Source: a virus
Lineage: Duplodnaviria > Heunggongvirae > Uroviricota > Caudoviricetes
Reading direction: 5' to 3' (one strand)
Virus record (IMG/VR): IMGVR_UViG_3300029033_000243
Span: 1-25,616 of that record
DNA: 25,616 nucleotides
The notes under the pieces are model-generated. The model did no database searches, had not been told where the DNA came from, and worked only from the letters and a program-made list of their open reading frames with translations. Below are positions 10,600-24,498 of this stretch, piece after piece (within the stretch, counting starts at the first letter, position 1; each line of letters opens with the position of its first letter). The translations under genes and the position numbers were made by a program.

Positions 10600-12366
10600 A
10601 TGAACACCACACTGACACCCGCAGATCTCGATCCCCGTCGGCAGGCCATGCTGCTGTACTTTCAGGGATACCGCGTAGCCCGCATTGCTGAAATGCTGGG
10701 CGAGAAAGTTGCAACCGTTCACAGCTGGAAAAAACGCGACAAGTGGGGTGACTATGGGCCGCTGGATCAGATGCAGCTCACCACCGCCGCACGCTACTGC
10801 CAGCTCATTATGAAGGAGCACAAAGAAGGGAAAGATTTCAAAGAGATTGACCTGCTGGCGCGCCAGTCTGAGCGCCACGCGCGGATCGGCAAGTTTAACA
10901 ATGGCGGCAACGAAGCCGACTTAAATCCTAACGTCGCCAACCGCAACAAAGGCCCGCGCCGTCAGCCGGAAAAAAATGTCTTCACCGATGAACAGATTGA
11001 GAAGCTGGAAGAAATCTTCCATTCCTCCATGTTCAACTACCAGCGCCACTGGTGGGAAGCCGGAAAAACCAACCGCATCCGCAACCTGCTGAAGTCACGC
11101 CAGATCGGCGCGACCTTTTACTTTGCCCGTGAAGCCCTGATTGACGCCCTGCTTACCGGGCGTAACCAGATTTTCCTTTCCGCCAGTAAGGCACAGGCCC
11201 ACGTCTTTAAGCAGTACATCATCGACTTCGCCAAAGAAGTGGAGGTGGAGCTGAAAGGCGATCCGATGGTGCTTCCTAACGGGGCCACGCTTTACTTCCT
11301 CGGCACCAATGCCCGCACGGCCCAGAGTTATCACGGCAACCTGTATCTGGATGAATATTTCTGGATACCGAAATTTCAGGAGCTACGCAAAGTGGCTTCC
11401 GGTATGGCTATTCACAAGAAATGGCGGCAGACCTATTTTTCCACACCATCCAGTCTGACCCACAGTGCTTATCCGTTCTGGTCCGGTGCGCTGTTCAACC
11501 GTGGGCGCAACAAAGCTGACAAGGTGGACATCGACCTGTCCCACAGCAATCTGGCCCCCGGCCTGCTGTGCGCAGACGGGCAATACCGCCAGATAGTCAC
11601 CGTGGAAGATGCGGTGCGCGGCGGCTGTAACCTGTTCGACCTCGACCAGTTGCGCATGGAGTACAGCCCGGACGAATACCAGAACCTGCTGATGTGTGAG
11701 TTCGTGGACGATCTCGCGTCCGTGTTCCCGCTCAGCGAGCTGCAGGCGTGCATGGTGGACAGCTGGGAAGTATGGACCGACTTTCATGCACTGGCGCTGC
11801 GCCCGTTTGGCTGGCGCGAAGTGTGGATCGGTTATGACCCGGCAAAAGGTACGCAGAACGGCGACAGTGCCGGATGCGTGGTGGTGGCTCCGCCAGCCGT
11901 GCCGGGTGGTAAGTTCCGCATTCTTGAGCGTCACCAGTGGCGCGGGATGGACTTCCGCGCCCAGGCTGACGCCATCAAAAAACTCACCGAACAGTACAAC
12001 GTTACGTATATCGGTATCGACTCGACCGGCGTTGGTCACGGGGTTTATGAGAACGTGAAAGCGTTCTTTCCTGCCGTCCGGGAGTTTGTCTACAACCCCA
12101 ACGTTAAAAATGCCCTGGTACTCAAGGCCTACGACATTATCAGCCACCGCCGTCTGGAGTTTGACGCCGGACACACCGACATTGCGCAGTCATTCATGGC
12201 AATCCGTCGCGCAACCACCGCCAGCGGCAACCGCCCGACCTATGAAGCCAGCCGCAGCGAAGAAGCCAGCCACGCCGATCTGGCCTGGGCAACAATGCAC
12301 GCACTGTTTAACGAACCGCTGCAGGGCGAATCCGCCAATACCAGCAATATTGTGGAGATTTTTTGA
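10600..12366 (+). CDS. P: terminase large (ATPase) subunit gpP
   Basis: 588 aa; strong resemblance to P2 gpP along its length; stop overlaps the Q start (ATGA). Confidence 0.9.
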   Translation: MNTTLTPADLDPRRQAMLLYFQGYRVARIAEMLGEKVATVHSWKKRDKWGDYGPLDQMQLTTAARYCQLIMKEHKEGKDFKEIDLLARQSERHARIGKFNNGGNEADLNPNVANRNKGPRRQPEKNVFTDEQIEKLEEIFHSSMFNYQRHWWEAGKTNRIRNLLKSRQIGATFYFAREALIDALLTGRNQIFLSASKAQAHVFKQYIIDFAKEVEVELKGDPMVLPNGATLYFLGTNARTAQSYHGNLYLDEYFWIPKFQELRKVASGMAIHKKWRQTYFSTPSSLTHSAYPFWSGALFNRGRNKADKVDIDLSHSNLAPGLLCADGQYRQIVTVEDAVRGGCNLFDLDQLRMEYSPDEYQNLLMCEFVDDLASVFPLSELQACMVDSWEVWTDFHALALRPFGWREVWIGYDPAKGTQNGDSAGCVVVAPPAVPGGKFRILERHQWRGMDFRAQADAIKKLTEQYNVTYIGIDSTGVGHGVYENVKAFFPAVREFVYNPNVKNALVLKAYDIISHRRLEFDAGHTDIAQSFMAIRRATTASGNRPTYEASRSEEASHADLAWATMHALFNEPLQGESANTSNIVEIF

Positions 12367-13394
12367 TGGGAAAGAGTAAGAAGAACCGCGCTGCGGCGAC
12401 GAAACAGATCCAGCTTAAAAGCCAGACTACAGCCGAAGCATTCAGCTTCGGCGATCCCGTTCCTGTTCTGGACCGCCGAGAACTGCTGGACTATGTGGAA
12501 TGCGTACAGATGGACCGTTGGTATGAGCCGCCCGTCAGCTTTGACGGACTGGCGCGCACCTTCCGCGCTGCCGTGCATCACAGTTCCCCGATTGCAGTGA
12601 AATGCAACATTCTGACCAGTACATTTATCCCGCATCCACTCCTGAGCCAGCAAGCATTCAGCCGATTAGTGCAAGATTATCTGGTATTCGGTAACGCCTA
12701 TCTGGAAAAAAGGACGAACCGATTGGGAGGCATTCTATCGCTGGAGCCATCACTGGCAAAATACACCCGCCGGGGCGTGGATCTCGACACCTACTGGTTT
12801 GTGCAATATGGCATGACCACGCAACCCTACGAGTTCACCAAAGGCAGCATCTTTCACCTGATGGAGCCAGATTTAAACCAAGAGATTTACGGCCTGCCGG
12901 AATACCTGTCCGCCATACCTTCCGCCCTGCTGAATGAGTCCGCAACACTATTCCGCCGGAAGTACTACATCAACGGCAGCCACGCAGGTTTCATCATGTA
13001 CATGACTGACGCCGCGCAGAACCATGAGGACGTGAACAACATCCGCCAGGCCATGAAAAGCGCCAAAGGTCCAGGTAACTTCCGTAACCTGTTTATGTAC
13101 TCACCCAACGGCAAAAAGGATGGCATTCAGATCATCCCACTGTCAGAGGTGGCGGCAAAAGATGAGTTTTTGAACATCAAGAATGTGAGCCGGGATGACA
13201 TGATGGCAGCGCACCGCGTGCCGCCGCAGATGATGGGAATTATGCCTAGCAATGTTGGGGGGTTTGGGGATGTAGAGAAGGCGAGTAAGGTATTTGTAAG
13301 AAATGAATTAACTCCCCTGCAAGCTAAATTTGAGGAGGTTAATCAATTCACTGGATACGAAATAGTGAAATTTAAAAAATATTCTTTTGAGTAA
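12363..13394 (+). CDS. Q: portal (capsid vertex) protein gpQ
   Basis: 343 aa; P2 gpQ-like size and sequence; translationally coupled to P. Confidence 0.9.
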   Translation: MMGKSKKNRAAATKQIQLKSQTTAEAFSFGDPVPVLDRRELLDYVECVQMDRWYEPPVSFDGLARTFRAAVHHSSPIAVKCNILTSTFIPHPLLSQQAFSRLVQDYLVFGNAYLEKRTNRLGGILSLEPSLAKYTRRGVDLDTYWFVQYGMTTQPYEFTKGSIFHLMEPDLNQEIYGLPEYLSAIPSALLNESATLFRRKYYINGSHAGFIMYMTDAAQNHEDVNNIRQAMKSAKGPGNFRNLFMYSPNGKKDGIQIIPLSEVAAKDEFLNIKNVSRDDMMAAHRVPPQMMGIMPSNVGGFGDVEKASKVFVRNELTPLQAKFEEVNQFTGYEIVKFKKYSFE

Positions 13395-13402
13395 ATAAAA
13401 AC

Positions 13403-13433
13403 AAGCCATCCATATAAATATATTGGATGGCTT
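13403..13433 (-). terminator. rho-independent terminator of the ATPase-SIR2 operon (hairpin shared with the convergent Q gene)
   Basis: Perfect 10-bp stem aagccatcca / tggatggctt with an 11-nt loop; on the minus strand it is followed by TGTTTTTATTT, 6 nt after the SIR2-like ORF stop. Confidence 0.55.
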
Positions 13434-13438
13434 ATTAA

Positions 13439-14014
13439 TTAAGACTCAGCACACAACTCTAAAAAAGAACCTTTATAATAAAAAAGACCAGACTTATCAT
13501 TTAACTCTGTAAATAGCTTACAAGCTCTTTTATGACACTCCAATGCACTGTTTTCATTACGACTAACTATAATTGTTTCTTTCTCCTTATTGTCTGCATC
13601 CAGAAAACTCTTCAATAAGAATTGAATAATGTAATCTTCTTCAGGGAAAGAATACCCAATAAAAATCAGAACATCTGCTTGTCTTAGTTGACTAGATGAT
13701 TTAATAAATGCATTTTTGAAGTATTTATCACTATAATTTTGATCATTAGATGGTAATATTATATTCGGACATGACTTTATATCATTTAATGAGTCGTAAT
13801 CAATTTTAAAGCCATCACCTTCAGCAATAACCTCAAACCCACCATTTAATTTATAGAGTCCAACTCCACCTTTTTTAGGACAAGCGACTTCGTTATTAAT
13901 ATGAATGGGAAAACCACGTAATTGAGTCCTAGCAGGATTGGAGAATTTCAAAACCTTATCAATAACTATATCATAATTTGTAGTTATAATATCCAAAGAT
14001 TTGGAACATTCCAA
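13439..14014 (-). CDS. SIR2-like (NADase-type) effector, C-terminal portion; frame is open upstream to an in-frame TAG at 14132-14134
   Basis: ORF-track piece begins at TTG; carries ITTNYD (nt 13970-13984) and LIFIGYSFPEED (GYS nt 13649-13657) SIR2-type motifs; AT-rich; same frame as the 14132..14527 piece. Confidence 0.6.
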   Translation of the reverse strand: MECSKSLDIITTNYDIVIDKVLKFSNPARTQLRGFPIHINNEVACPKKGGVGLYKLNGGFEVIAEGDGFKIDYDSLNDIKSCPNIILPSNDQNYSDKYFKNAFIKSSSQLRQADVLIFIGYSFPEEDYIIQFLLKSFLDADNKEKETIIVSRNENSALECHKRACKLFTELNDKSGLFYYKGSFLELCAES

Positions 14015-14131
14015 TCCATTAAAAAACCTGATAATATCATCTTTATGTTTTCTTGCAGCACCCTTGCTATCAAGCTTAAATTCACTCGCAGGCAGTAATC
14101 TTACAAATTTATTCTTAATGTAATTCTTGAC

Positions 14132-14527
14132 CTACCGTTCAAAATAGTCCAGAGTCTGTTTATCCAAATGAGATGGTAAAAGACTAGGGTATCTGCGGTA
14201 AACATCAAGATTGTACTTAAAACTCTTAAATACGCCAGCCCTTTCCTTTTCACAAACAGTTTCTGGATGCAGATTCAGATTAAAAGATTCAAATAAAGAG
14301 AAAAATTTAAACTTATCAGAATATAATTCAGCTTCTTCTTTTGACAACGAGAAAACTTGATCACTCAGGGGATATTTTTCATCCCAAGCTTTAGAAAAAC
14401 CAGCACCTAAAAAAACACATATTTTCTTATCGTCTAGCTTCCGATGTAAATCATCGAAGGACTCTATTCCTAGAGAATTACCTTCTTGAGCCACACCATC
14501 ATAGTCAAAGTCTAATTTATCTAACAT
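14132..14527 (-). CDS. SIR2-like effector, N-terminal portion (Rossmann GAGxS motif), ending at an in-frame TAG
   Basis: 131 aa; KICVFLGAGFSKAW (nt 14393-14407) is the SIR2 dinucleotide-binding motif; ATG overlaps the ATPase stop (TAATG), indicating translational coupling. Confidence 0.6.
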   Translation of the reverse strand: MLDKLDFDYDGVAQEGNSLGIESFDDLHRKLDDKKICVFLGAGFSKAWDEKYPLSDQVFSLSKEEAELYSDKFKFFSLFESFNLNLHPETVCEKERAGVFKSFKYNLDVYRRYPSLLPSHLDKQTLDYFER

Positions 14528-15768
14528 TATTTTTCTTTCCCTACCAATCCCAAAAAGGAAGGAAGAACACCAAATTCCCCTCGAAAATACTTAGCCGAAA
14601 CCTTAGCATCTTTCCTAATTGAAAACTTTGATGCATTGATAATATTCGAGGCTTTTTCTTTATCTTTGATAATAATATTTAATTCATCTCTTCTGAAGCA
14701 TTCATCCAATAAAGGAATATTATGAGTAGATAATATAAATTGCATATCATTTTTCTCTAAATGATATGTTAAGATACTTTTAATTAAGGTGGTAGCCAGA
14801 GAATGATGAATAGATGCATCTACTTCATCAACATAAAGCGTAAACCCACAATCAGTTGTCCAAATAACTGCAGCCATGAATGTTAATATATTCATAGTCC
14901 CTTGTGAGAAAAACTCATCCCTCTCACCTGGACCTATGGTTGTAAAACCACCATCAAGATTTTTTATCTTGTAGACAAAGTGATATTTTTTATCACTACC
15001 TACAGGAAGAAAATCGACACCATCAATATGAAGGGGTGCCTTTAAAATAACATCACCATACAAACCTAACAGATTCTTAGCATTATCATTAATGGTTACC
15101 TTCCCATTATCATCTTTAGTCAGTAGTTCTTCAAACTTGGATTCAAAAAACTCCAACCCTTTACCAAAAAATATTTCAGGATTATATGGTAATTGAGATA
15201 CAGCCCAATCTCTAACATTAGTCATTTCTTTGGATTGCAAAGATTTCGCAAATGTTATTACTGCACCAGAATCTTTAATAATTGGTTTTATAAGCGTTTC
15301 ATGCTTTTTGTAAGTTGGTTTTTTAAACTCCAACTCATCTCCATTACGAATAAAAATACAACTTTCTTTTGCTCCTTTCTTCACTTCTCTTGAGTAAAGA
15401 TATTCACTAACAACCTTACCTTCAAAAACAGATATCCCATATCGAAGAAAAGTGTCTTTTTCTTTGTTTACAATAATAACTTCATAAGAGGTCGGACTTA
15501 GTCGATTTTTACTATCGAACATGTACGGTTTATGGAGTTCATTCAATGTGTCACGATGTATAGATCGAGCAAAATCATTTATTGCTCTTATTATTTGAGA
15601 TTTTCCTGCACCATTCCCACCAATAATTGCAGCAAATCGATTAATTCTTAATCCATTGTCTAACAACATAGTATGATCAAGGTGTTCATCACCAGCGGAT
15701 GACACAAAACTTAGAGTCTGCTGGTCTCTAAAGCTCTTATAATTCTCTATCGTGAAGGCAATCAGCAT
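14527..15768 (-). CDS. ABC-type / AAA_21-like ATPase (OLD/PtuA/AriA-like architecture), first gene of the two-gene cargo operon
   Basis: 413 aa; Walker A GGNGAGKS (nt 15598-15621, verified by translation); Walker B/D-loop LYVDEVDASIHH; late STHN motif; N-terminus MLIAFTIENYKSFRD typical of these ATPases; AT-rich. Confidence 0.8.
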   Translation of the reverse strand: MLIAFTIENYKSFRDQQTLSFVSSAGDEHLDHTMLLDNGLRINRFAAIIGGNGAGKSQIIRAINDFARSIHRDTLNELHKPYMFDSKNRLSPTSYEVIIVNKEKDTFLRYGISVFEGKVVSEYLYSREVKKGAKESCIFIRNGDELEFKKPTYKKHETLIKPIIKDSGAVITFAKSLQSKEMTNVRDWAVSQLPYNPEIFFGKGLEFFESKFEELLTKDDNGKVTINDNAKNLLGLYGDVILKAPLHIDGVDFLPVGSDKKYHFVYKIKNLDGGFTTIGPGERDEFFSQGTMNILTFMAAVIWTTDCGFTLYVDEVDASIHHSLATTLIKSILTYHLEKNDMQFILSTHNIPLLDECFRRDELNIIIKDKEKASNIINASKFSIRKDAKVSAKYFRGEFGVLPSFLGLVGKEK

Positions 15769-15912
15769 CTGAAACCCCTAATTTTGTGAAAAAAGTGCAA
15801 AATAGACATGATTAGTGAGTGTAATGCAGACTGAGCTAGGCTGTAAATGAAGATGTGAAGTTATCCTTTAATACTGTTCTTGCTTTCAACCAAATCTCAT
15901 ACTTAGCGCGCG

Positions 15913-15931
15913 CTCGTATCCCCGCCACGCC
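15913..15931 (-). other. putative cos site (19-nt cohesive-end sequence, minus-strand orientation)
   Basis: Reverse complement reads GGCGTGGCGGGGATACGAG; the first 13 nt match the cohesive end I recall for phage 186 (GGCGTGGCGGGGAAAGCAT; P2 has GGCGAGGCGGGGAAAGCAC). Lies downstream of Q, as expected. Confidence 0.5.
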
Positions 15932-15953
15932 TGCCCGCTTTATGCAGTGGTTT

Positions 15954-16054
15954 TCATGCACATGCATGACATGAGCAAAAGCCCGCCAGTTCTGGCGAAT
16001 CTGAGCAAAGACGATCCTCAATCGATCATGCGATTTCATGCAGCATAGTCATGC
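15954..16054. repeat. cluster of TCATGC / CATGCATG short repeats next to cos (possible terminase recognition elements)
   Basis: Read directly: TCATGC at 15954-15959, 16026-16031, 16036-16041 and 16049-16054, plus CATGCATG at 15961-15968. Confidence 0.3.
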
Positions 16055-16310
16055 ACTGTCAAGGAAGTTAAAATCCGTATCTGAATGGCCACTTGAAAAA
16101 CGGATCATACGGGTTTACAAAGATGAATGTTCGCTGTGAACGGGAAGCGGAAGTTAACTTTCAGATAACATAATCCATATGCACGAGAACCTCTAAAATA
16201 GAATGGGACACCTAAGCGGGGTACTTACAACTATTCTTTCCATATTCACAGTTAACACTCTGTTTGGCGTATTTTTATTCAAATAGCAAACACCAATAAA
16301 AGGAGTTTCC

Positions 16311-16646
16311 ATGAACAATATTCCCCCTATACCACAGTTAGGAATTTATGTCTCAAAAATCGATCCCACCCTACGTATCACTGTAACCGATGTTGATATT
16401 GTTGATGGTGAGGATGATTCTCCTGATGATGAATTGTTTTATTTAGTCCACTGGATCGAGGGGGAAGATGAAAGTGATATGACAGCAATGGGATTTGAGC
16501 TAGACCCAGTAGAGTGGCAGGCTTTCGTTGAATCTGAGCAATTAGTGTTTGAGCGTGATCCGTACATGGATTCAATCCCCGAAAATTCAAACTTGGCAAA
16601 GATTCGGGATTTTCTCATGAAGACTAAACAGAATGATCATTCGTAA
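16311..16646 (+). CDS. small very acidic protein of unknown function (111 aa)
   Basis: ATG preceded by AAAGGAG; roughly a quarter of residues are Asp/Glu with few basic residues; lies between cos and the Tum/DinI-like module, where P2 carries tin/old. Confidence 0.55.
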   Translation: MNNIPPIPQLGIYVSKIDPTLRITVTDVDIVDGEDDSPDDELFYLVHWIEGEDESDMTAMGFELDPVEWQAFVESEQLVFERDPYMDSIPENSNLAKIRDFLMKTKQNDHS

Positions 16647-16838: not shown

Positions 16839-17072
16839 TTAATGCAGCCAGCTGTCGTCCTCCCACACCTTCTGCATAATTTTCATCACTTGTTTTCTTT
16901 CTTCATCCAGTTGCAGTCCGGTTAGTTCCACACCGTTAGAGCTACCTTTGCGAATGCGAATTACCGTTTTGGGATACAGGGGGCGCAGATTGCGGTAAAG
17001 CTCGGATTCAAGGGCGTCCAGGGTAGACTGGCTAATCTTCTGCTCTTTATCGATCATTATTTCAATGCGCAT
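16839..17072 (-). CDS. DinI-family protein, Tum-like antirepressor domain
   Basis: From the internal Met (MRIEIMIDKEQ...LDALESEL...VWEDDSWLH), 77 aa aligns by eye with E. coli DinI (MRIEVTIAK...ETWESADDWFVSE). The ORF-track frame extends upstream to 17144, overlapping the preceding ORF. Confidence 0.7.
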   Translation of the reverse strand: MRIEIMIDKEQKISQSTLDALESELYRNLRPLYPKTVIRIRKGSSNGVELTGLQLDEERKQVMKIMQKVWEDDSWLH

Positions 17073-17082
17073 AAAAGTCACC

Positions 17083-17271
17083 TCAGCTGATGACATCCAT
17101 TGAGCGGTTGTATTCGTGGCTTCTGATTTTTGCCATGAGTTCATCAGTCAATTCAGAAACCCACTGCAGAGCCAGCCCCTTCTCTTCATCACTACACTCA
17201 CTAGCCGCTACAAGCTTAAGAAAAAAATCAATGCGCTGGAGCTTCAAAGACTCCAAAAAATAGTCCTGCAT
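17083..17271 (-). CDS. small ORF (62 aa) preceding the DinI-like domain; possibly the N-terminal part of a Tum-like antirepressor
   Basis: ATG with AGGAGG 4 nt upstream; LexA box about 40-60 nt upstream; its 3' end overlaps the DinI-like frame. Confidence 0.5.
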   Translation of the reverse strand: MQDYFLESLKLQRIDFFLKLVAASECSDEEKGLALQWVSELTDELMAKIRSHEYNRSMDVIS

Positions 17272-17423: not shown

Positions 17424-19844
17424 TTAATACAGGTTCCGCCACTTATCATCTTCCTTCAGACGTTGGTTCCGATAGAAGATACGCAGGCCTGCTCCTGACG
17501 GAATACTGCCGCCGCGAAGGAGCAAATCGACTTCTTTCTCGCTGCCATCAAATCCCCTGGACTTCAGTTCATAGACGAGCTGCTGTCGCTGATGGTCTGT
17601 AATTCGCTGTTTGTAGTCTTTACGCCGTTTCGGTTTCACCTGGCGTAACCTTGCAGCCAGTTCCCGGCGCTCTTTTTTGCTCATACTGTGCAGGTAATCG
17701 TGCAACTCCTTGTCATTCATACGGGTAATATCCGTTCTGGAGTCCCCATCAGCTGATTTGTCTTTCCCTTGTTGGTTCAAATTTTCAGCAAGGGGACAGT
17801 TATTGCCACGAGTCCGAGTCCAAGGGGCGCAAGCGCCCTGGTCGGCTGCCGCCTCCTGAACGTCAACGGCTTTACGAACCATTTTCCACTTCACTGCATG
17901 AGTGCAGATCTTGCCCTCTGCAATGGGTGACCAGATGCCATAAATACGAATACCGTGATCGCCATAGGCGGTCGGCTCTTCGTTGATTTCATAAGCGGTT
18001 CTGATGAGGTGATATTTACGGGGAACCAGTACGCCGCCCTGCTTCATGATATAGGTGGCAAAACAACCAGCATCAGCAGCAGCCAGAATGGCATCAAGGC
18101 GCGGGTTATCCAGTACCGGCGCACCTGCTTTTTTGTCATCCTGCTGCCTTGCCGCCTGACCAGCCAGCAATCGCAGTTCACGGTAAGCCTGACGCCCCGG
18201 AATGCCAAAGAAGCGGAATTGCTGAACACGATGCAGAGACGCCCAGGCATTAACGTATTCAGCGTTATCACGCAGAGTTTTACCCGTTTCCTTGCTGATC
18301 TCGCCAGCCAGACCACGCCCGTCAATATTCTTACTGATATATTTCGCGATGTAGCTTGTCGGCGTTCCTTTGCGCGGATTAATCAGCTCAGACTGAAAGC
18401 GCGGCCCCGTGTTATTGCCCAGCTCCTCGCGGTCTTCACGGATGGCAAAGTTACGCAGTAATGCAGTGATGGCGCGGCGGTCTTTTTTGCGCATAAAACA
18501 CAACAGGTGCCAGTGAACTGTACCGTCATGATGCGGCTCAGCCACCCGCACGCCATACCACCGCAATCCGGCTTTGTGCATTGCCTTACGAAATGCAGCA
18601 AACATGCCGACCAGATAATCACTGCTTTGTCTTACCGTCGCATTTGTCCAGGTCGGGTTGGGCCTGCCGTTATTTAGCGTGGAATGGAAACGTGACGGAC
18701 AGGTGATGGTGTAGAAAACGGCGCAGTCACCGCGCATTTCCGCGATAAGCTCCAGACCTTTAACACAGGCCATCATCTCATTGCGGCGATGCGCAGGGTT
18801 GCTGCTGCTGGCGTTTACCACATCCTCCATGTCCAGCGTGTCGCCGTCTTCGTTCACCAGTTCATGAGAACGGAAAAACTCCAGCGACTTACGGCGCTGC
18901 TCACGTTTATGCATCACGGCTTCATAGCTGACATAGGGAGATGCTTTTTTGCTGACAAGGCAGACAGCACGCAACTGCTCTTCCCGCCATTCGCAACGCA
19001 TCTTCCATAATTTCCGATACCACCAGTCGGCGCACAACATACGCGCCAGCGAACCCGGAATGAGTTCATAGGGCACGGGTTTACGGCGGTTTCTTTTCCG
19101 GCGGAGTTGCTCAAACGCAGGTGGGATGACATCCAGTCGCAGGGTTTCTGCTGCCACCCTTTCCCATGTCTTGCGGATTTCTTCTGGCTTAACGTCATCG
19201 GTGGCATACAAATCGCCACAAGCTGCATCAAGGCACATGCTCATATGCGCAGCTACCAGGGTGGACAGGCGTTTCACCTGATCCTGACTCATTTCAGGCA
19301 GGATCAGCAGGCCGTCCAGCCCTTCATGGCTCGCCATAAAGCGAAAAGAAGTGGATAGCTGACTGTCGCGTACATGCTCCAGCCGTTCCAGACATGGCTT
19401 AATCGTCTCACGCAAATAGCGGGAATAAGCCTTTGGCCTGCCCAGGCTGCTGAAGTATTCAATACGTTGCATCAGCGGCTTGCTGATATGGGAAGGCTGG
19501 GCGTTGACGTCAGCCAGAATGACCATGTCTGGATTAAAACGCTGCTGCTCATGCGCCAGCTTTGCCCGGCTAATGAGCTTATCCTGCTCCATTTCGCGCT
19601 GGACAGGATCACGGGATTCATTAAAGAAATAACGCTCCCAGACCTGCTCACTCAGTGCCTCGCGGCGCAGTTGTTCCTGCTCGTTATCGGCAGCATACAG
19701 AGTGATCAGGTTTGAAAGTGCAGACTCCGGCGCAACTTCCGCCGGGTCCAGATAAGGGTTAATGGCCTTTTTCGGGCCGTTCCATGAAAATGATGCGGCG
19801 GCCTCGTTAAAGCCGCTAGAGTTGCTCATATCGTCATGACTCAT
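17424..19844 (-). CDS. A: replication initiation protein gpA (rolling-circle endonuclease)
   Basis: 806 aa; HUH-type motif [11 protein letters not shown]2/186 gpA-like; start overlaps the Dam stop (ATGA). Confidence 0.85.
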
Positions 19845-23526: not shown

Positions 23527-24498
23527 ATGGACTCTAAAGAACACAAAAAAGAAACAATACAAAACAGCATCACAAAATCAGAGTTTAAAAAATACGTTGA
23601 TTTTATACATGATGATTCTATTCCACTTCCTGAACATGAACGCACATATCTAAAGAACTTGTTGAAAAATGGTGAAATTGAAGAATTCAAGGATCAATAT
23701 AGACGCCATCTCCAAAACTTAGATAGAGTCGGCTTTAGCGACGAAGATATTGAATTACAACTTAACGTGTTAAAAAAAGATAATAATGAATTCAGAAACT
23801 TATTACGTTTTTATACAGCTCGCTTATCTGATTTGCAAGAAAGCAACACCTCATTATCATTAAAAAACAAAGAGTTAGAAAATTTAAACATAGAAAAAGA
23901 ATCTTTACTTGAGCAAACTTTTTCTAGGATAAAAGAGTTAGAGGCTTCAAATAACGAATTAACCAGTCGAGCACATCAAGAGAGAATTGATCAAAAAATT
24001 CCCGAATATGTCAATAGTGTAAAAGATGATTTAGGTGATGATGATGATCACTTTATTTCACTCGCCAAAACATGGGCTATTGCTGGTGCAATAGCCGGTC
24101 TTTCCGCTGTCATTTTTTCGTTCATATCATTATATTTTGTTACTGATTTCATAAATGCTAAAGGATTTGAACTATTTTATCTATTCACCAGAGGCCTGAT
24201 TGGAATTTCCATTTTATCATGGCTTTCTTATATCTGTCTGAGTATCTCCAAAAAGTATACTCATGAGTCCATTCGCAGAAAAGACAGAAGGCATGCCTTA
24301 ATGTTTGGTCAAGTCTTCCTACAAATTTACGGTTCGACTGCGACCAAAGAAGATGCTATTCAGGTATTTAAGGACTGGAACATGTCTGGAGATTCTGCTT
24401 TTTCTGATCAAATGGATTATCCGCCAAGTTTCCAAACGCTATGGTCTACCGCGAAAGAAAAAATCAAACCTTCTCATTCAGAAAAATCCTCCGATTAA
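23527..24498 (+). CDS. AT-rich cargo gene: 323-aa coiled-coil protein with two C-terminal transmembrane helices (candidate superinfection-exclusion/abortive-infection protein)
   Basis: Between repressor and integrase, same strand; heptad-like region (LSDLQESNTSLSLKNKELENLNIEKESLLEQ...); hydrophobic helices WAIAGAIAGLSAVIFSFISLYFV and LIGISILSWLSYICLSI; AT-rich. Confidence 0.65.
   Translation: MDSKEHKKETIQNSITKSEFKKYVDFIHDDSIPLPEHERTYLKNLLKNGEIEEFKDQYRRHLQNLDRVGFSDEDIELQLNVLKKDNNEFRNLLRFYTARLSDLQESNTSLSLKNKELENLNIEKESLLEQTFSRIKELEASNNELTSRAHQERIDQKIPEYVNSVKDDLGDDDDHFISLAKTWAIAGAIAGLSAVIFSFISLYFVTDFINAKGFELFYLFTRGLIGISILSWLSYICLSISKKYTHESIRRKDRRHALMFGQVFLQIYGSTATKEDAIQVFKDWNMSGDSAFSDQMDYPPSFQTLWSTAKEKIKPSHSEKSSD

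Follow-up and report, generated by a model that had tools for sequence, protein, structure and literature searches.

A single amber codon interrupts the putative SIR2-type effector gene of a two-gene cassette in a P2-like Escherichia coli prophage, and we read it, with a probability of about 0.9, as an inherited single-base nonsense mutation that most likely abolishes the effector, and with it the activity of the system, and leaves the ATPase intact, that is, as an ordinary pseudogene. The window, as the term is used here, is the whole stretch of DNA that was analysed, 25,616 nucleotides in length. In the proposed course of events, the cassette is a cargo of two genes at the gpA-gpQ position of the prophage, an AAA_21/AbiLi-like ABC ATPase followed by an overlapping SIR2_2 gene, and one C to T transition within the prophage lineage converted the Gln132 codon CAG to TAG. 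Translation would then stop after 131 residues, which comprise the strand β1 with the GAGFS loop and part of a helical insert, and five or more core strands carrying the TTNYD and KLNGG active-site motifs would not be made. The truncated SIR2 product is presumably inactive, the ATPase is still encoded intact, and the mutation is recent and heritable and has by now reached many assemblies.

The amber codon in the SIR2 reading frame

Reading and translating the minus strand from 14527 to 13439 yields 131 codons, the TAG at 14134-14132, 230 open codons and a TAA, and the TAG is the sole interruption of a 362-codon SIR2_2 frame (13439-14527, minus strand). The first-pass annotation had described a SIR2-like frame split by one in-frame amber codon and a joined product of about 362 residues, with GAGFS upstream and TTNYD and GYS downstream of the stop, and both points are confirmed by the translation, in which the joined conceptual product is 362 aa long. 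The relevant features of the gene are the following.

14135..14527, minus strand: N-terminal 131 codons of the SIR2 gene, with the strand β1, the nucleotide-binding GAGFS loop and some of the helical insert; no other part of SIR2 is expected to be translated
14393-14407, minus strand: GAGFS, residues 41-45, 5′ of the TAG
14132..14134, minus strand: amber TAG, codon 132 of the SIR2 frame, from CAG (Gln); the coding-strand base at 14134 is T, versus C in intact alleles
13439..14131, minus strand: SIR2 codons 133-362 and the TAA, with TTNYD, K-L-N-G-G, GYS and the rest of the Rossmann core
13970-13984, minus strand: TTNYD, residues 182-186, 3′ of the TAG
13838-13852, minus strand: K-L-N-G-G motif, residues 226-230, 3′ of the TAG
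13649-13657, minus strand: GYS, residues 291-293, 3′ of the TAG

The other two minus-strand frames over the gene contain 22 and 63 stops, and an open run of 230 codons after the TAG would arise by chance with a probability of about 2e-9 at the local G+C content of 32% (0.083 stops per codon). The joined product matches the Pfam family SIR2_2 (PF13289) over residues 180-326 with 36.6 bits at a gathering cut-off of 24.5, and the 131-aa fragment by itself is named "hypothetical protein [Escherichia coli]" in NCBI.

Intact alleles and the origin of the stop

Homologues of the protein are uniformly undivided at the position of the stop. A search of a large protein collection returned 197 matches, and each match listed as complete is one protein of about 355-420 aa that spans both halves of the interrupted frame. 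In an alignment of 27 homologues, all of them single proteins of about 360 aa, the stop column is occupied by a sense codon throughout, with Q in the majority and E or D in some relatives, and a stop at the codon-132 column is found in none of the 27. The closest DNA relative first recovered, locus L006, which is also the nearest one with CAG beyond the exact allele, likewise has CAG at codon 132. The 90% cluster of the fragments includes two intact 362-aa proteins, of which P0125 from E. coli equals the conceptual product of the window at every residue but Q132, and P0124 differs from it solely by C92S and Q132. Finally, a look-up by the ATPase of the window led to three loci (L090, L091 and L094) in which an identical ATPase lies beside an intact 362-aa SIR2 gene. 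Over 17,242 bp, four substitutions and one 6-bp indel separate the intact-allele prophage L094 from the window, and inside the 2,330-bp cassette the single difference is C versus T at 14134. Assemblies with the CAG allele include GCA_902839175.1 and GCA_050899475.1.

On the basis of these alignments, the stop is a single derived and very recent transition (C-to-T) from CAG (Gln132) to TAG. The first-pass annotation had listed a nonsense mutation among three options and had pointed to a comparison with homologous loci, where the codon indeed turns out to be sense (CAG or Q in L006, P0125, P0124 and L094); the option is supported by the CAG in otherwise identical alleles, by the position of the stop in the middle of a helix of a single-domain fold, and by the unchanged ATPase. 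The sequence downstream of the stop is without secondary lesions. This fits a recent origin, because over 17 kb only four SNPs and one indel of 6 bp separate the sister prophage from the window, and taken alone it would be compatible with continued constraint too.

Other possible disruptions were seen among the relatives. The SIR2 gene of L006 (ENA scaffold SHAO19-1_SAMEA5616812, 3637 bp) has a 4-aa in-frame deletion directly after TTNYD (TTNYDI----VLKF), and its ATPase, which is divergent past residue 365, is 391 aa long, probably owing to a frameshift; these changes could be a second independent lesion of the cassette or an artefact of the metagenome assembly. In the SIR2 cluster, the C-terminal tail is foreign in P0128 and P0134, and the N-terminus is foreign in P0129 (Citrobacter freundii) and P0031; all of these may be further independent disruptions or contig-end artefacts.

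The amber allele is present in roughly half of the assemblies with the exact ATPase. Its frequency may come from clonal hitch-hiking, from dissemination by lysogeny or from selection against an effector that is costly. It is conceivable that the cassette is an uncharacterised defence system, in which the AbiLi-like ATPase controls a non-canonical SIR2 that has Asn228 in place of the His, and that the amber allele spread not by drift but as the loss of the effector was advantageous (e.g. through autoimmunity or a conflict with a co-resident element). The ATPase alone would then be left as a natural state, in which trace readthrough might serve as an attenuator. Such a course of events appears unlikely to us, and the loss is presumably due to neutral decay or hitch-hiking and not to the cost of the effector.

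Consequences for the SIR2 protein

An AlphaFold2 model was made for P0002, an intact relative that is 91% identical to the product of the window. The model (pLDDT 90.3, pTM 0.88) is one continuous SIR2 fold, where the strand 35-40 with GAGFS comes first, then a helical insert at about residues 55-172, and then the later core strands 177-182 (TTNYD), 222-226 (KLNGG), 254-256, 286-290 (GYS), 317-321 and 348-351. Residue 132 falls within the helix 123-144, between the strands 35-40 and 177-182, and according to the model the stop therefore cuts inside a domain and not at a domain boundary. After the stop, no in-frame ATG or GTG is found through the end of the SIR2 frame, and the candidate starts are solely TTG at codons 172 and 178, the former with no Shine-Dalgarno-like sequence upstream and the latter with only GGA. 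No tRNA was found in the 25.6-kb window by ARAGORN. Judged from the sequence and the model, the SIR2 effector is most likely null with the ATPase intact, because the stop lies mid-helix in one fold, no ATG or GTG follows in frame, and there is no tRNA in the window.

If the stop were passed by means of amber suppression, programmed readthrough or recoding, a full-length or attenuated effector would still be made, with the TAG as a throttle. This was another option of the first-pass annotation, and the data do not support it. The 230 codons downstream are still open and unmutated, and toxic effectors might in principle be better tolerated at trace levels, but the open frame is accounted for by the recency of the mutation. 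Only one allele, of very recent origin, has the TAG and every homologue, including the sister with the identical backbone, has a sense codon, and there is therefore no sign of a conserved recoding site, in which the stop would be shared among homologues. Amber suppressors are rare among natural isolates of E. coli, and UAG is read through at a basal level of roughly 1% or less; such low-level readthrough could give traces of full-length SIR2, whereas a functional role for the stop seems highly improbable.

An even smaller likelihood is assigned to a two-piece enzyme, in which the 131-aa N-terminal fragment and a re-initiated C-terminal fragment would assemble non-covalently into an active SIR2. 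Gene callers do annotate a downstream ORF of 185 or 191 aa from the TTG codons, but these starts have little or no Shine-Dalgarno sequence, and such a product would leave out residues 132 to 171 or 177 (40-46 residues), which make up half of the helix 123-144 and all of the helix 160-172. Moreover, the break falls inside a domain, and none of the homologues is split by nature.

Recurrence of the TAG allele

The loci L001-L004, L092 and L093 match the TAG cassette of the window with 100% identity over 2,330 bp; these are six contigs that stem from different projects and technologies and were assembled independently. The sources of the allele comprise three NCBI isolate assemblies (GCA_038072425.1, GCA_028474905.1 and GCA_022383895.1) and several ENA metagenome assemblies, and the two fragments have been deposited repeatedly, on 58 and 55 contigs, in NCBI, ENA and Logan. 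The 131-aa fragment, on its 58 contigs, is present in 113 index blocks and the exact ATPase in 202; among the 24 longest ATPase-bearing contigs that were read, 10 group with the TAG loci and 14 with the intact ones. Few SNPs and indels separate the TAG prophages from one another outside the cassette, and by this comparison they are a small lineage and not one sample.

A sequencing or assembly error, with CAG as the true codon and the gene intact, would concern a single base, and an otherwise identical CAG allele does exist, but at least six isolate and metagenome contigs, each assembled independently, have the TAG allele with identical bases, which leaves next to no likelihood for an error, and this last option of the first-pass annotation is rejected. 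Just as improbable is an ancestral split, with two adjacent genes as the normal state of the family, which draws on the ORF calls in the TAG allele and on nothing else, whereas one ORF covers both halves in homologues with as little as 25% identity; two-gene homologues, which would have made the split ancestral and not a lesion, were sought, and single genes were found.

The 2.6-kb cassette gave no megablast match, either in complete E. coli genomes or in GenBank phages, and the cassette allele is therefore absent from the two collections searched. Exact-pattern scans for the TAG or the CAG allele in IMG/VR and JGI metagenome contigs likewise gave no match. A look-up of the 323-aa ORF beside the integrase gene (window 23527-24498) with 10-kb flanks recovered only prophages with other hotspot cargo.

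Genomic setting of the cassette

The cassette is located in the gpA-gpQ interval, which is described as a defence-cargo hotspot of P2-like phages by Rousset et al. 2022 (PMC9122126). The genes around it, together with the ATPase, are the following.

12363..13394, plus strand: P2-type portal gene gpQ, one border of the hotspot; PF04860 is found on the same gene in L001-L004
13403..13433, minus strand: hairpin AAGCCATCC(N13)GGATGGCTT followed by GTTTTTATTT, with a 9-bp stem, a 13-nt loop and a T-run, read by eye
14527..15768, minus strand: intact 413-aa ABC-type ATPase, AAA_21, AbiLi-like (PF13304, 3.2e-11; PADLOC AbiLi)
16311-16646, plus strand: conserved DUF8087 / phrog_17127 gene of 111 aa, between the DinI-like gene and the cassette
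16839-17144, minus strand: DinI-like gene, between gpA and the cassette
17424..19844, minus strand: replication gene gpA of the P2 type, which bounds the hotspot on the opposite side

The flanks are of the P2 type, with the terminase and gpQ on one side and DinI, gpA, a Dam-like methylase, CI and the integrase on the other. The backbone is about 95% identical to P2-like phages of Klebsiella and Escherichia, from which the cassette is absent, and the cassette thus constitutes variable content between gpQ and gpA on a conserved backbone. Its G+C content of 32.5%, versus 50-57% in the phage genes, would be consistent with acquired cargo. Proteins identical to those of the window are named Escherichia coli in NCBI, and these names point to E. 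coli as the host of the prophage. A 540-bp intergenic stretch with 42% G+C (15769-16310) separates the start of the ATPase gene from the DUF8087 gene, and in L090 an acetyltransferase gene is found in place of the latter.

In L102-L105 (e.g. E. coli CFT073, AE014075.1, 900450-921421), the same backbone is found with a 323-aa protein identical to that of the window and with the same chromosomal insertion site, beside TetR/MFS genes. The hotspot cargo of these prophages is different and consists of Hypoth_Ymh and two small genes, of an AAA_21 protein of 561 aa together with an acetyltransferase, or of a ThsB-TIR set.

The gpA gene is itself variable. An indel hotspot lies at 17816-17821 (minus strand), where GGACTC is present twice in the window and once in L094 and L001, a 6-bp difference that gives gpA proteins of 806 versus 804 aa. 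In L004 and L092, gpA contains a frameshifting 26-bp tandem duplication, with GGACTCGTGGCAATAACTGTCCCCTT present twice; the duplication splits the gpA of L004 into 695 and 98 aa, and no gpA gene is called in L092. Some of the prophages with the TAG allele are thus probably replication-defective as well.

The ATPase and its association with SIR2

The ATPase was reported as retained in the first-pass annotation, and rightly so, as the AAA_21 protein has its Walker A (GGNGAGKS, 15598-15621), Walker B (LYVDE) and H-loop (STH) motifs intact. The TAA of the ATPase gene (14527-14529) overlaps the ATG of the SIR2 gene (14525-14527) as TAATG, which suggests translational coupling of the two. The hairpin at 13403-13433 is probably a terminator shared between the convergent SIR2 and portal genes; it is missing from a terminator consensus scan, in which loops are limited to 3-8 nt, whereas its own is 13 nt long. 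With PADLOC, the ATPase matches the AbiLi model PDLC02335 at 9.6e-54, and AriA (7e-14), HEC-01 and PtuA are weaker matches. Lamassu-Sir2 was considered as well, and no LmuB model is among the PADLOC matches listed for the ATPase, which represent 25 of 76 families.

Both genes, intact and adjacent, also occur in other E. coli P2 hotspots (the P0019 lineage, 59% identity, 381 index blocks), in Klebsiella sp. R390 (L010), in a chromosomal locus (L008), in another prophage (L007), and in Vibrio at 37-40% identity. Distant SIR2 homologues with 25-30% identity (L012-L089, e.g. L012, L021, L024 and L055) have no adjoining AAA_21 ATPase, and the partnership with the ATPase accordingly seems, from these neighbourhoods, to be limited to an Enterobacterales/Vibrio clade. 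The hosts of the distant homologues include Alphaproteobacteria, Salinicola, Flavobacteriia and cyanobacteria, and the neighbouring genes are varied, among them those for a 925-aa protein and a 625-aa UvrD-like helicase.

Curated collections hold no entry for this arrangement. PADLOC 2023, NCBIfam 2026 and PHROGs are without a model for the pair; the SIR2 protein has no NCBIfam or PHROG match, and PADLOC gives generic SIR2 matches only. A literature search for a two-gene system of an ABC ATPase or AAA_21 protein and SIR2 found no characterisation, and the passages retrieved from the supplementary tables of Rousset et al. contain SIR2_2 entries, alone or with DUF87, and not the ATPase+SIR2 pair. 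From its domain content and location, the intact cassette can be inferred to be an anti-phage system, with the ATPase as a sensor or controller and SIR2 as the executing effector, roles that are proposed by analogy with PARIS, AbiL, Gabija, OLD and SIR2-HerA.

SIR2 family and active-site residues

The best Foldseek match of the P0002 model, which is aligned over its full extent, is the SIR2 protein of E. coli SIR2-HerA (8suw_F; E = 1e-12, 388 columns, TM about 0.56), followed by classical sirtuins, and the best PDB match by sequence is 8w9l. The fold is that of SIR2 proteins, of the Rossmann type with a GxGxS loop and a helical insert, and GAGFS is present in 114 of 120 homologues. Of the canonical Asn...His dyad, the Asn is present (N184 in TTNYD), and the position of the His is taken by an invariant Asn228, as the segment LYKLNGGF aligns to LWKLHGS of 8w9l; K[LI]NGG is found in 116 of the 120 family members, and the homologue alignments contain no invariant His anywhere in the SIR2 family. 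In the SaSir2 NADase the catalytic His is essential (PMC11514289). The label "NADase" is unproven for the SIR2 of the cassette, because the family has Asn for the canonical catalytic His, and hydrolysis or depletion of NAD+ by an Asn/His dyad may not apply.

Comparison with known systems

The cassette can be compared with several known systems. First, it resembles the described cargo of the P2 gpA-gpQ interval (PMC9122126) in its position between gpQ and gpA next to DinI and in being short and low in G+C, and differs in that its effector gene is a pseudogene. Next, the ATPase is of the AbiLi type, and the two-gene operon with the ATPase first is likewise that of AbiL, but no AbiLii (TOPRIM/RloB-like) match is found in the window and the second gene is SIR2_2. 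PARIS has the ATPase-first, two-gene order in common with the cassette, but the AriA-like match of the ATPase is weak and the window is without a DUF4435/AriB partner. The defining partner in AbiL and PARIS is a TOPRIM/DUF4435 nuclease, AbiLii or AriB, in contrast to the SIR2_2 protein of the window. In the case of SIR2-HerA (Nezha), the two SIR2 proteins have the GAGxS loop and the Asn motif TTNYD in common, whereas the partner in the window is an AAA_21 ABC ATPase and not the hexameric HerA/DUF87 helicase, the His in K-L-H-G-S is replaced by Asn, and the sequence identity is only about 15%. Finally, with respect to the stop itself, the gene is of the same kind as ordinary prophage nonsense pseudogenes: a single-base CAG to TAG change is inherited and intact sister alleles circulate, the orthologues have a sense codon, and the change is reproducible in independent assemblies.

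Discussion

The reading of the stop as an inherited nonsense mutation has direct consequences for annotation. The E. coli database entries for a 131-aa "hypothetical protein" and for a "SIR2 family protein" of 185 or 191 aa would be pieces of one pseudogene, and counts of defence systems should score the cassette as inactive in strains that carry the TAG. The TAG and CAG prophages also form a natural isogenic pair that differs by one base in the cassette and in only four other places in 17 kb, and could provide a clean control for both the phage defence exerted by the cassette and the cost of its effector. Apart from these uses, the mutation is an unremarkable loss of function in prophage cargo, and the more interesting aspects lie beyond the stop, in the SIR2 clade without the catalytic His and in its partnership with an ABC ATPase.
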